NCBI GenBank assembly: GCA_038889235.1
Contig: JAWAHN010000001.1
Coordinates: forward strand, 60,001-92,000
Origin: Candidatus Jordarchaeales archaeon
GTDB taxonomy: Archaea; Asgardarchaeota; Jordiarchaeia; Jordiarchaeales; Freyrarchaeaceae
Reading direction: 5' to 3'
Length of the DNA stretch: 32,000 nt
Program-made: the position numbers and the translations under genes
The notes under the pieces: model-generated
Databases searched by the model: none
Told to the model about the DNA's origin: nothing
What the model saw: only the letters and a program-made list of their open reading frames with translations
Shown here: positions 22,552-27,013 of the stretch, piece by piece
How the letters are laid out: each line of letters opens with the position of its first letter
How positions within the stretch are numbered: position 1 is the first letter of the stretch

Positions 22552-23808
22552 TTAATCCGCCGCTGAACTTCTGTCTCTTCTAATCCACCTCTTTTTTCTG
22601 ACTTCATCGGCTAGGCGGCGTGTCATTACTAGCGCTGCGACACCTGCAAGAAGGGACACTGGTCCCGTGGCTATGCCACTTAGCAGGTTAGGGAGGAAGT
22701 CTATTGAGGGCGCGGATATGCAAAGAGCCGTCGCCAGCGGCCCAACTGTGAGAGATAGTAGGACTGCGGCGTGAACCAGTGTGCTCGCCTTTGAAAAACC
22801 GTTCTCAGGTTTCTCCACGAAGCCGAGAGCTACGGGTATCGTTAGGTACGGTATGTAGACGCCGGCGATCTCTATTGTCACATCGAACAGGTATGTGATG
22901 CACGCCTTGTAGAGGTCTGCTGGGAACACTACTAGGACGGGAAGCGCCGTGTGGTAGAATGGTATTACAAGCGGTAGCCCGTAACTCACCCAGAGAGACC
23001 TCACAAGTGACTGTACTGGGTCAAGGAGGGTGATAGACGCAGATGCGAAGTCAAAGCCCGCGAAGGGTATGGGTACTCCCACCCATCTTCTGAAGCCGAA
23101 CTGTTGCGGGATGAGGGTGAAGCATAGGGCGTAGTAGGCTATGTAAAGGAAGTAGTGTGTCGTGAATATCCAGAAGCCTCTGCCATTCACGCGTGCGAGT
23201 ATTGCTAGCCCTATGGCGGTCATTATGAGTAAACCGCCCACTGAAACTGGGTTGAAAATCCATCTCAGGCTGTATGTTGAGTTCCACACCGGGATTCCTA
23301 GCAGTCCTATAGATGGGTGAAGCACGCCGGCTACGACTCCTATGCTCTCAACGCCTCTCTCGATTGCTAGGAAAAACGGTGTAAAGAGGAGCACTAGAAG
23401 TAAAGCTGCACGCTTCCTTAGCTTTAGAAACCTAGCGAAAATGTATCCTAGGAGGGCTGGTAGGGCTCCGTCCGTTATGCCTCGCATCACCGCCGGGAGC
23501 CATGTTGGAAGCCATACTCCCCCCATTAGCATTAGGGGGTTGACCGCCCTTATGCCTGACAGTGCAATGTATACCTCAACGGTCGTCCAGGCGACCGCCG
23601 ACATGAGGAAAACCCAGGCGGCCCCTAGTTCACCTTTCCGGAGTAGGTATGCGAGGAGGGCAAACGTTATGGCGATGACCACCAGCGAGCCCGTGTAGAA
23701 GTAACCGTTACTCGTCCTCACAATGTACATCTGGTTCGACAGAACTTGGTATGCTAAAAGGTATAAAGAGTCAGCCGACAAGCGACTCGACCCCCCAAGT
23801 ATTCTCAT
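22552..23808 (-). CDS. Unknown multi-pass membrane protein, paralog A
   Basis: 418 aa hydrophobic ORF sharing many identical blocks with 23961-25124. Confidence 0.85.
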   Translation of the reverse strand: MRILGGSSRLSADSLYLLAYQVLSNQMYIVRTSNGYFYTGSLVVIAITFALLAYLLRKGELGAAWVFLMSAVAWTTVEVYIALSGIRAVNPLMLMGGVWLPTWLPAVMRGITDGALPALLGYIFARFLKLRKRAALLLVLLFTPFFLAIERGVESIGVVAGVLHPSIGLLGIPVWNSTYSLRWIFNPVSVGGLLIMTAIGLAILARVNGRGFWIFTTHYFLYIAYYALCFTLIPQQFGFRRWVGVPIPFAGFDFASASITLLDPVQSLVRSLWVSYGLPLVIPFYHTALPVLVVFPADLYKACITYLFDVTIEIAGVYIPYLTIPVALGFVEKPENGFSKASTLVHAAVLLSLTVGPLATALCISAPSIDFLPNLLSGIATGPVSLLAGVAALVMTRRLADEVRKKRWIRRDRSSAAD

Positions 23809-23960: not shown

Positions 23961-25124
23961 ATGCTCGACCTCCTATCCAACTTGGTATACATTGTGAGGA
24001 CGGCAAACGGCTACTTCTATACTGGTGCAATAATAGTCGTGGCCTTGACTGTCCTCCTCTTGGTTCACGTGGTTAGGAAGGGCTACAGGGGGGCTTTATG
24101 GGTTTTCCTATTGTCCCTAGTGTCTTGGTCGCTCAGTGAGGTTTACTGGGTTGTTTCAGGGGGGCGGCTTGTAACCCCGGTCCAGCTAATGGGTGGGGTG
24201 GTTGTTCCCGAGCTTGTTCCAGCCCTACTCAGGGGTGTGACTGACGGAGCGCTGCCGGTGCTCTTAGCCTATCTATTCGCCGTGAACCTCCACGAGAAGA
24301 GGTTTAGGTGGGTTGCTGGAGTATTGGGTTTCATGGTCCTCTACCTCTTCATTGAGGGGTTCTTTGAAACGATAGGGGCGCGAATAGGCGTTCTTCACCC
24401 TGCCATGATATTGCTGGGGGTTCCTGTCTGGAATGCGACGTACAGCGTTAGATGGGTGTTTAACCCTTTGTCCGTTGGGGGCTTATTGTCCATGACCGTG
24501 CTTGGCTTGGCTGTGACTGCTTGGAGAAGGAGCTACTTGCTGTGGAAGGTTACCTCGCACTACTTCGTCTACCTCGTGATATACACGACGTACGCTTCAC
24601 TTATGGGGCAACTCGTCGGGTTTAAGCGGTGGGTTGGCGTTCCGCTGCCGTTCATAGGCTTCAACCCCGCTAGCATGGCAATCTCCACACTGGACCCACT
24701 TCAATCCTTGCTGAGGCTTGCATGGGTGAGCTACGGTTTGCCCACCATATTCTCCGTGTATCCACTAGCATTCCCCGTTCTACTCGTGGTTCCAGCCAAC
24801 ATTTATGGAGCCTTCTTAGGATACTTCTTCGACGTCACCATAGAGGTTGCAGGGGTGTACCTTCCGTTCATCGCCTTTCCCGTTATGCTGGGACTCGTCG
24901 AACTTCCAGGTAAAGAAGTTGCGAGGTCTGCAGCTCTGCCGCATACGGCCATCCTTTTATCCTTGACAGCTGTGCCACTCGTCCTGGGGGTCTGGTTATC
25001 TTCGAAGGCGCCGCACTTCCCATCATCTTTCGCTCAGGGAGCTATAGGCTTCCTGGCGTTTCTAGCAGTTGGGTTAGTAGTTCTAGTTGTTGTGAAAGCG
25101 CTGAGGGGGAAAAGCGTAGGTTGA
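23961..25124 (+). CDS. Unknown multi-pass membrane protein, paralog B
   Basis: 387 aa hydrophobic ORF with GGAGGTGA RBS; paralog of 22552-23808. Confidence 0.88.
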   Translation: MLDLLSNLVYIVRTANGYFYTGAIIVVALTVLLLVHVVRKGYRGALWVFLLSLVSWSLSEVYWVVSGGRLVTPVQLMGGVVVPELVPALLRGVTDGALPVLLAYLFAVNLHEKRFRWVAGVLGFMVLYLFIEGFFETIGARIGVLHPAMILLGVPVWNATYSVRWVFNPLSVGGLLSMTVLGLAVTAWRRSYLLWKVTSHYFVYLVIYTTYASLMGQLVGFKRWVGVPLPFIGFNPASMAISTLDPLQSLLRLAWVSYGLPTIFSVYPLAFPVLLVVPANIYGAFLGYFFDVTIEVAGVYLPFIAFPVMLGLVELPGKEVARSAALPHTAILLSLTAVPLVLGVWLSSKAPHFPSSFAQGAIGFLAFLAVGLVVLVVVKALRGKSVG

Positions 25125-25196
25125 AGTGAGAAGGGGAAAGTATTTGGGGAGGGAGCCGGAAATATCGAAAATGAGAATAGCCTAGTGGGATCCGGT

Positions 25197-25535
25197 ATGA
25201 GGTTTGTACTAACCGAGAAGGCGCGGACCTATATTGCTTCAGAGGCAGAGAGGATATCCAGAGAGAACGGTACACCTGTCCTAGCTGTTTGGGCAGAGGA
25301 AGTCTACTCTTGAAGAGGAAGCAGGATTGAGGTGCGTGCAGGAGTGCATTACGAGAGAAAGGTTTTGGAGGCAGGTGGCTTCAAAGAAGAGGAGCCCGTT
25401 GACGGGTTGAAGGTCTACGTGCACGAGGAAGCATACAAGTACCTTCCAAGCGAGGTTCACTTGGACTACTTAGGTTACTGGAGAGGGCTGCGCGTCACGA
25501 ACTACGTCTCCGTGAGGCGCGATGGGACCTGTTAA
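25197..25535 (+). CDS. HesB/IscA-like selenoprotein (112 aa; in-frame UGA = Sec39 at 25311-25313)
   Basis: Read-through translation: MRFVLTEKARTYIASEAERISRENGTPVLAVWAEEVYS-U-RGSRIEVRAGVHYERKVLEAGGFKEEEPVDGLKVYVHEEAYKYLPSEVHLDYLGYWRGLRVTNYVSVRRDGTC. Both halves align by eye to the HesB/IscA fold (LTEKA; U at the GGC-SG Cys position; DGLKVYV; LDY; C-terminal GTC). A SECIS-like element follows the stop. Confidence 0.82.
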
Positions 25536-25543
25536 AGTTGTGT

Positions 25544-25585
25544 GAGATGACCCGCCTCCATAAAGAGTGGCGGGGGCGGTGATCT
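25544..25585 (+). promoter_or_regulatory. Eukaryote-type SECIS element in the 3' UTR
   Basis: AUGA at 25547-50. Quartet U48.U83, G49.A82, A50.G81, C51.U80. Helix CCGCCUCC (25552-59) pairs with GGGGGCGG (25572-79). Unpaired AAA at 25562-64. Confidence 0.8.
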
Positions 25586-25630
25586 GGCGGTAATGCACCG
25601 CCAACCTTCCTTTCATTCTTTGGGGTTTCT
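25585..25630 (+). terminator. GC hairpin followed by pyrimidine/T-rich tract
   Basis: TGGCGGT-AATGC-ACCGCCA (25585-25603), then ccttcctttcattcttt. Confidence 0.5.
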
Positions 25631-25683
25631 TGGATTTCCGTCCTTTGTTGTTTGAGCGGATGCCCCCTTTTTGCGAGATTTGA

Positions 25684-26607
25684 TTGCACTGCATGTTTTT
25701 AGGTAAACGTTTTTTAACCTTCTTTGCCACTTTAGTTCCTTCGGTGGTCTCCTTGTTGGATGAGGAGAGGGAGAGGTTGATTAAGCAGGCTGCCAAGGAC
25801 ATAGTTAAGGCGAACAGAGTTGTCGCTTTAACTGGGGCGGGGATTTCTACTGAGAGCGGAATACCCGACTTTAGAGGGCCTAGCGGCTTGTGGAAGAAAT
25901 ATGACCCAGAGGAGTTCACTTTCTCTCGCTTCTTAAGCGATCCGGCCAGATTTTGGAGTGTTCAAATAAGCATAGCTATGGATGGGTTTTCCCTGTTTTC
26001 CGCTGAGCCTAATCCGGCCCACTACGCGCTTGCAAGATTAGAGGAGCTAGGCAAGCTTAACTGCATAATAACGCAGAACATTGACGGATTGCACCAGAAA
26101 GCTGGTAGTAAGAACGTGATAGAGTTTCATGGTAACGTTAGGGAGGCTGTTTGCATAAGGTGTAACAGCATTTTCCCGATAGAAAAGGCTGTCACGAAAG
26201 TCATGGAGGGTGAGTTGCCTCCGTGCTGTGACTACTGTGGAGGCGTTTTGAAGCCGAATGCTGTCCTTTTCGGTGAGCCAATACCCAGGGATGCGCTTTT
26301 GAGGGCTGAAGAGGAGGCGATGCTCTGCGACCTAATGCTGGTGATAGGCACTTCAGCTGTAGTGTACCCCGCAGCCGACCTACCGCGGATAGCTAAGGAG
26401 AAGACGGGGTATGGGTGGAGCATTATGGGCTACCGACCCCAGGTGCTGGGTAAGTATGGAGCGAAGGTGATAGAAATAAACGGGGAGCCCACCCCTCTCA
26501 CTGGGGTGATATCAGACTATATAATAGAGGGAAGGATAGGGGAAATCCTTCCTCGGGTGGTTGAGGAAGTCGAGAGAATGTTGAAGAAGAAAGAGAAGAA
26601 GCCTTAG
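25684..26607 (+). CDS. cobB: NAD-dependent protein deacylase (Sir2 family)
   Basis: GAGISTESGIPDFRG, TQNIDGLH, HGN, CIRC...CDYC Zn site, KPNAVLFGE and IGTSAVVYPAA. The start is probably downstream of the ORF-track start. Confidence 0.95.
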   Translation: MHCMFLGKRFLTFFATLVPSVVSLLDEERERLIKQAAKDIVKANRVVALTGAGISTESGIPDFRGPSGLWKKYDPEEFTFSRFLSDPARFWSVQISIAMDGFSLFSAEPNPAHYALARLEELGKLNCIITQNIDGLHQKAGSKNVIEFHGNVREAVCIRCNSIFPIEKAVTKVMEGELPPCCDYCGGVLKPNAVLFGEPIPRDALLRAEEEAMLCDLMLVIGTSAVVYPAADLPRIAKEKTGYGWSIMGYRPQVLGKYGAKVIEINGEPTPLTGVISDYIIEGRIGEILPRVVEEVERMLKKKEKKP

Positions 26608-27013
26608 GACCTGCGTCGAGCGCAGTTCCCCCAAGCAGACTGTTAATGGTTGTAGCAGGTAGTCTCTGAACGATACTTTTTAATCTCGCGTTTTTGAGGA
26701 TTTTAAGTGGGATGAGGAGGTTGAGAGTCATGGGAGCTTTCGCGATGACCGGAAGTAGCCTCCGACTGCTTAAGCGCCATTGAAAACGTTCTTGTTCACT
26801 TTGTCGTGTGTGCAACCAGGTGGTGAAGATTTTTCCATGTGCTGCATTTCGAAAGCCGCTGTAGTTGTGAATTAGACGGGGCGCTACTTCTGACAGGTAA
26901 GTTTTCAGAGACACTGGTGGCTGGACGCTGAATGATGCTTCCGTGGGAGATTTTCTTAAATATGTTCTCAGCTAGTATTCTTTGAGGTTTCTGTGCGGTA
27001 AGGGGGACTGTGC

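Follow-up and report, generated by a model that had tools for sequence, protein, structure and literature searches.

Two curated selenoprotein families are among the closest described systems for the gene reported here. HesB-like selenoproteins (TIGR01911) occur in Methanococcales and anaerobic bacteria, carry a UxGP motif according to a 2026 review (PMC13188914), and were the sole IscA-superfamily entry in the archaeal selenoprotein lists that we found. NF041239 is a bacterial CC/Se motif family predicted in Moorella thermoacetica and given with a CxxU motif in the same review (PMC13188914). The accessible portions of the Asgard surveys describe five selenoprotein families in Lokiarchaeota (Mariotti 2016; PMC4989117) and seven in Asgard archaea (Huang 2024; PMC11227280), all of them hydrogenase/Hdr subunits, SelD or thioredoxin-fold proteins, and neither the text nor the 87 supplementary files of Huang 2024 (PMC11227280) mention HesB or IscA. 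A Freyarchaeia genome paper lists HdrA, a Prx-like protein, SPS and VhuU as selenoproteins, and the 2026 review (PMC13188914) counts 11 archaeal families, the Asgard-only ones being a Prx-like protein, an AhpF N-terminal homolog and a DsbA-like protein, none of which has an IscA fold. An earlier note on this DNA, made from the letters alone, had proposed a HesB/IscA-like selenoprotein absent from the described Lokiarchaeota families, and in the accessible portions of PMC4989117 and PMC11227280 it is indeed absent from both the five Lokiarchaeota and the seven Asgard families. As none of the known families and surveys that we compared contains an IscA-fold Asgard selenoprotein, the gene is an IscA-superfamily selenoprotein outside the curated families, and it has an Asgard-type SECIS.

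The window, by which we mean the whole 32,000-nt stretch of DNA analyzed (C1:60001-92000), comes from a genome of 2.14 Mb in 8 contigs that is 95% complete; the closest relatives of this genome carry the names Candidatus Jordarchaeia/Jordarchaeum and Freyarchaeia, and the organism is of the Jordarchaeia type, not a Lokiarchaeon. In agreement with what the earlier note had read, a single plus-strand frame runs from an ATG at 25197-25199 to a TAA at 25533-25535, its sole internal stop being the TGA at 25311-25313 (codon 39), and the gene was missed by ORF calling, which under table 11 cuts it into the pieces 25185..25313 and 25332..25535. The single frame, the orthologs, an AF2 model and selection on both sides of the TGA all mark 25197..25535 (+) as one coding sequence for an IscA-fold selenoprotein of 112 residues. 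The predicted Sec lies in the context EEVYSURGS, and the only Cys is residue 112, which is encoded by the last sense codon (TGT, 25530..25532, +) and is the candidate partner of Sec39. Searches of public protein collections (phmmer against 1.8 billion representatives, and word-index searches) identified no Cys homologs, only fragments or translations with Trp at the TGA. We conclude on comparative grounds that recoding of UGA39 to give a 112-residue product of IscA/HesB fold is very probable, and we regard as likely the explanation as a whole, namely that a Jordarchaeia-type Asgard archaeon has at 25197-25535 (+) a genuine selenoprotein gene, the product of which has an IscA fold.

One line of evidence for recoding is the conservation of the TGA. 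A six-frame search recovered the gene from all four other genomes of the family and all six of the sister family, each copy having exactly one in-frame TGA, and in nine of these ten copies (G001, G002, G003 and G005-G010), which span three genera, the TGA occupies the same column in the context VYSU-R/G-S/G-S-R, counts that are to be read with the common descent of these relatives in mind, as they are not independent samples. The terminal Cys is present in eight of the nine aligned orthologs, the G001 copy being without it. The remaining copy, from a sister genus (G004; locus L025, G004:C56:1290-4475, gene at about 1411-1743), looks degenerate: its N-terminal half is unrecognizable, a TGA elsewhere in the gene stands in place of a conserved Trp codon, and the upper stem of its SECIS is lost. 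The family profile (A1) matched 31 of 400 Asgard genomes from about ten families, nearly every match with one TGA, and the family as a whole extends from the Jordarchaeia/Freyarchaeia, where all 11 genomes searched have it, to Promethearchaeia and to several further families of Asgard archaea. The only invariant columns in an alignment of 21 sequences were Ala9, the Sec column and Phe62; in alignments A1 and A5 the sole member without TGA at the Sec column carries Cys there. This member, the G319 homolog (L074:1504-1827), reads SISGC at the Sec column, has no in-frame stop and is the only Cys form found, so that the homologs with UGA or Cys at residue 39 for which the earlier note had suggested a search both exist, the former among orthologs and distant homologs alike. 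Since exactly one in-frame TGA, at one column, is shared by nine orthologs of three genera and by distant Asgard homologs, its presence is more than chance.

The coding sequence around the TGA points the same way. Pairwise pN/pS was about 0.2-0.5 in the part before the TGA and in the part after it alike, and the codons on its two sides are, by this measure, under similar purifying selection; the UGA is thus conserved among orthologs that also show coding conservation on either side of it, as is expected of a selenoprotein gene. A sequencing error or a recent nonsense mutation, two of the ways in which the earlier note allowed that it might be wrong, did not find support, as the TGA is kept not only in the orthologs but also in a DNA assembly made independently in a different study, which has three differences along the stretch, none of them at the TGA, and in a contig of 688 nt that comes from the metatranscriptome library of a strain 97% identical to this one. 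This contig spans 24936-25624, covering the ORF and the 3' element, and cannot by itself prove transcription or the position of an RNA end. Elsewhere in the genome TGA is an ordinary stop, at which 307 of 942 long frames end, as do the gene upstream and the RNR gene, so the genetic code has not been reassigned.

Downstream of the gene, ten orthologous 3'UTRs define a structured element (25537..25605, +) in which an outer helix encloses two hairpins. The first (25541..25587, +) is a eukaryote-like kink-turn SECIS hairpin, with AUGA at 25547-25550, an apical AAA at 25562-25564 and GA at 25581-25582; it begins 6 nt past the stop codon, placing the AUGA core 12 nt past the stop and 236 nt past the UGA. 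The second, GC-rich hairpin (25586..25602, +), of the form GGCGG-loop-CCGCC, lies directly 3' of it. Pairing across the ten 3'UTRs held in 94% of cells, versus 47-59% when the partners were slid, ten pairs showed compensatory changes, and none of 500 shuffles reached the observed values. Compensatory changes occur in six of the seven pairs of the SECIS upper helix, while the helix of the second hairpin is 100% paired with two compensatory pairs and an invariant GC in its loop. The first hairpin of the orthologs has (A/G)UGA on its 5' side and UGAU on its 3' side, with an upper helix of 7-9 bp and an apical loop rich in A; in place of UGAU the Freyarchaeia orthologs have UAAU, i.e., the AUGA_AA variant, which the accessible part of Huang 2024 (PMC11227280) reports from Helarchaeales and Borrarchaeales. 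The Asgard eSECIS-like elements known as lokiSECIS (Mariotti 2016; PMC4989117) and the type I model (Huang 2024; PMC11227280) are here compared as given in the accessible portions of those papers; all of the type I features, i.e., the AUGA_GA core, the upper helix, unpaired apical adenines and the 3'UTR position, are found in this hairpin. A T-rich tract at 25606..25625 (+) is probably a transcript end: the RNA-library contig of the related strain (24936-25624) stops here, and the run behind that contig has no depth at 25651-25761.

A covariance model built on the first hairpin only (R1) scored 52 bits at 25541-25587, and its only other matches in the whole 2.14-Mb genome were 16 nt past vhuD/mvhD, which has two Sec, and 13 nt past vhuU, which reads DCULGCAAH. 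With filters off, R1 had same-strand matches immediately 3' of 15 homologous genes at 13 loci in other Asgard genomes. It detected no SECIS after the Cys-form G319 homolog, and gave no match at E ≤ 1 after the homologs in L066, L067 and L076, which we take as a diverged element and not as absence. An Rfam search over 24000-27000 returned no SECIS family and only chance matches. A GC-rich second hairpin directly 3' of the kink-turn SECIS was seen in all four 3'UTRs of this genome that were inspected, those of the IscA-like gene, vhuD (C1:749341-749365), vhuU (C3 about 428340-428369, minus strand) and selD (C1 about 554280-554296), its loop containing (A/U)GC(A/G); this hairpin may belong to the recoding signal or form a structure at the end of the transcript.

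The earlier note had made its proposal depend on Sec machinery being encoded in the same genome, and all of its parts were identified. SepSecS (498 bits) and EFSec (306 bits) are adjacent genes on the same strand (C1:350598-353269), and a PSTK-like gene, scoring 192 bits versus a curated cut-off of 290, lies about 21 kb from them (C1:374773-375516, minus strand). SelD (C1:553189-554227) carries a Sec of its own (HGUACK), and its gene is in two frames in this assembly. Within selD, at about 553441-553471, lie 31 nt that contain the inverted repeat CACAGCC/GGCTGTG and the removal of which would restore a conserved SDVY-AKGATE junction; they may be an intron in a protein-coding gene or else reflect a fault in the assembly. 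The tRNA-Sec gene (C1:335995-336137, minus strand) has three introns, which interrupt the D loop (20 nt), the anticodon loop (12 nt) and the T loop (18 nt); with all of them removed it is a 93-nt sequence that Aragorn calls as tRNA-SeC(tca), the acceptor stem being of 9 bp and the D stem of 7 bp. These short inserts make it invisible to Aragorn and Rfam: with them in place no tRNA-Sec was found by Aragorn in the window or the genome, or by Rfam in the genome and 12 relatives, and cloverleaf scans did not find it either. The best candidates that Aragorn and Rfam offered were rejected, being intron-bearing tRNA-Leu and tRNA-Arg genes. An intron-bearing Lokiarchaeal tRNA-Sec has been described (PMC5330540), and the gene found here fits that description. 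The Sec genes are about 250-470 kb from the IscA-like gene on the contig, i.e., there is no linkage. A CRISPR-like array with the repeat CTTTCAATCCCCATTTGTGGGGACT was also observed in this genome, near the end of C2 (minus-strand offset about 498354). With this gene set, UGA39 would be decoded as Sec by the archaeal/eukaryal pathway (tRNA-Sec, PSTK, SepSecS, SelD and EFSec), and the kink-turn hairpin in the 3'UTR would be the recoding signal.

The product could be placed by its fold far more readily than by its sequence. An AlphaFold model computed from ten orthologs (pLDDT 90, pTM 0.80) has, together with its structural matches, a single IscA/HesB-fold domain spanning the TGA, which bears out the earlier observation that the parts on both sides of it are HesB/IscA-like. 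The ten best PDB matches by VIA-align were all IscA/SufA/HesB-type, with Z from 8.7 to 6.0, and the next, an unrelated chain, scored 2.2; the match to E. coli IscA (Z 8.7, rmsd 3.0 Å) covered 93 residues, followed by SufA (8.3) and DsrR (7.8). The top 12 PDB chains by Foldseek were likewise IscA/SufA/HesB-type, with the exception of 9a4q_B (an ODPA-YNER integrative model). A profile-profile alignment (hhalign) against an Asgard IscA profile paired U39 with the GGC(A/S)G Cys (E-value 5.8e-4, probability 29%), the same position to which the earlier note had assigned the UGA; in the model this codon falls in the turn of a β-hairpin (strands 27-38 and 41-52). The HesB/IscA-like assignment therefore stands by fold, but not by sequence, where the protein lies outside PF01521 and TIGR01911 and the nearest family, NF041239, scores below its cut-off. 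Pfam gave no match to the 112-residue protein at E ≤ 10, and NF041239 was the sole NCBIfam match (22.2 bits versus a cut-off of 40), aligning residues 5-101 with positions 5-89 of a profile of 91; in a search of the whole genome this model reached 15.3 bits, again below its cut-off of 40. Among 21 family members, 12 matched NF041239 (best E 3.4e-7), 11 matched PF01521 (best E 8.6e-5) and one matched TIGR01911, weakly (E 0.058), all of these scores being below the cut-offs. TIGR01911 (cut-off 66 bits) matched neither the protein nor, at E ≤ 1, anything in the genome, and its UxGP motif is absent, URGS being found here. A PDB sequence search with the family profile A1 also gave nothing meaningful.

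Comparison of the family members distinguished four subtypes, and indicated that the Sec is fixed while its partner Cys moves. Subtype I, found in Jordarchaeia, Freyarchaeia and three other families, has the Sec and a C-terminal Cys. Subtype II (SUSGYFC, without a tail Cys) and subtype III (SUTMAFCGN, ending in NVYG) are from Promethearchaeia, where the two sometimes occur in tandem, and subtype IV reads GUCG or SUCG. Subtypes other than I have no C-terminal Cys and carry UxxxxC (U+5) or UC (U+1) instead. Of the U39/C112 pair that the earlier note had proposed, the Sec and the terminal Cys were found as described in the Jordarchaeia/Freyarchaeia type; the pair is, however, specific to this one subtype, as the second Cys lies elsewhere in the others.

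The gene neighborhood indicated no pathway. Synteny is kept only within the genus and consists of two paralogous membrane proteins upstream, and Sir2 and a class II RNR downstream; the former are divergently transcribed (22552-23808, minus strand, and 23961-25124, plus strand), about 50% identical and without a Pfam family, and stay with the selenoprotein gene in the genus. At several Promethearchaeia loci (L068, L070, L075, L077 and L078) family members, some of them tandem pairs of two subtypes, adjoin an aconitase-family gene, and a P-type cation ATPase gene is also adjacent at L068, L070, L071, L075 and L082.

The most likely role of the protein, which we propose tentatively and at slightly less than even confidence, is that of an A-type-carrier-like holder of an Fe-S cluster or a metal. 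Sec39 very probably sits at the tip of the β-hairpin, at the site that the first cluster-ligand Cys occupies in A-type Fe-S carriers, and Cys112 on a flexible tail at the C terminus, at the site of the CxC ligands of IscA; an Fe-S cluster or metal ion could then be held between the two, probably across a dimer, and passed to clients. We favor this role on the basis of the placement of the Sec on a ligand position, the tail Cys at the CxC site, the fact that canonical IscA is mostly missing, and the aconitase-family genes beside the Loki-type members. PF01521 had no match in this genome and matched in 5 of 121 Asgard genomes, and it may be that the IscA-like selenoprotein replaces canonical IscA, which was not found here. 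Counting against a carrier role, there are two possible ligands per chain versus three in IscA: of the three ligand Cys that characterize A-type carriers, the first position is taken by Sec and the tail has one Cys instead of CxC. A second Cys that shifts between subtypes is, moreover, at least as typical of a resolving redox Cys as of a fixed ligand set. A bolder form of the same proposal, that Asgard archaea, being mostly without canonical IscA, have a lineage-wide selenium-dependent A-type carrier with Sec as a cluster or metal ligand, and a two-hairpin SECIS in which both hairpins are required, appears doubtful to us.

The alternative that fares best is that the protein is a thiol/selenol oxidoreductase, in which Sec39 would attack a substrate and form a selenenylsulfide with a resolving Cys, the IscA fold serving only as a scaffold; the resolving residue would be Cys112 in this protein, and U+5, U+1 or a second Sec in the other subtypes. 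This would account for the Sec being the sole invariant functional residue with a partner Cys whose position varies by subtype, it agrees with the view that most uncharacterized prokaryotic selenoproteins are redox proteins (2026 review, PMC13188914), and the nearest curated family, NF041239, is listed with a CxxU motif (PMC13188914). Against this, the fold is not thioredoxin-like, the Sec falls precisely where IscA has a cluster ligand, with the C-terminal Cys at the IscA CxC site, and there is no adjacent redox partner gene, and we consider it possible but on balance unlikely. A relay of selenium or sulfur, with a perselenide or persulfide carried on Sec39/Cys112 and handed to SelD or a biosynthetic enzyme, seems to us more improbable still. 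This idea, which rests on analogy, draws on DsrR, which is IscA-like, belongs to the dsr system of sulfur oxidation and is among the best structural matches (Z 7.8), and on the near absence of the family in any but the Sec form, the genomes that have it carrying homologs with an in-frame TGA; the analogy is weak, however, since DsrR has no Cys ligands, and the gene is not linked to selD or to any other Sec gene, these being about 250-470 kb off. Finally, although gene callers give exactly these fragments and the G004 copy looks degenerate, we regard it as highly improbable that this is not a selenoprotein, the TGA being a true stop (through a nonsense mutation or as the boundary of two genes of 38 and 67 codons) or read through with a standard amino acid, because the TGA column is kept across three genera and distant Asgard homologs with selection on both sides, one folded domain extends across it, a covarying SECIS of the vhuD/vhuU type follows it, the lone Cys-form homolog has no detectable SECIS, and other genes of the genome use TGA as a normal stop.

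With an A-type-carrier-like role as the preferred reading, the gene poses a functional question: whether this is a carrier protein in which selenium can ligate an Fe-S or metal center, or an IscA fold put to new use in redox chemistry. New here are the Jordarchaeia/Freyarchaeia form with its Sec39/Cys112 pair and the count of the family across 400 genomes. The Asgard selenoproteome is larger than the published lists, and the added family has a different fold; as a Sec family with nearly no Cys forms, one being found here, it is of a kind that homology-driven surveys miss. The SECIS set of the family, with its second hairpin, also provides extra comparative data on the archaeal-to-eukaryotic SECIS transition. 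Set beside the Asgard eSECIS-like elements as described in the accessible parts of PMC4989117 and PMC11227280, the element has in common with them the AUGA_GA core, the unpaired apical adenines, the 3'UTR location and the AUGA_AA variant, but its hairpin forms a three-way arrangement together with an outer helix and a second hairpin that is conserved, and of such an arrangement we found no description in those parts. The euryarchaeal (methanococcal) SECIS, as far as the accessible source material covers it, is of the GAA_A type, in contrast to the eukaryote-like kink-turn found here.

Among protein families, TIGR01911 (HesB_rel_seleno) resembles the Asgard protein in comprising small single-domain members of the HesB/IscA superfamily with one Sec, but its motif is UxGP, whereas SU(R/G)(G/S)S is found here. 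NF041239 (Moor_selen_rel) is the best-scoring curated model and matches over nearly the full length; its listed motif is CxxU, however, and the Asgard protein has no Cys near the Sec. As NF041239 is listed from a bacterium (Moorella), we infer that it would have a bacterial-type SECIS. Finally, the IscA/SufA/ErpA carriers (PF01521; 1r94, 1s98, 1x0g and 2d2a) share with the Asgard protein the fold of the whole domain, the position of the first ligand Cys, on which Sec39 falls, and a tail Cys, and are set apart from it by the lack of a Pfam match, by a CxC tail versus its single Cys, and by Cys in the place of its Sec.
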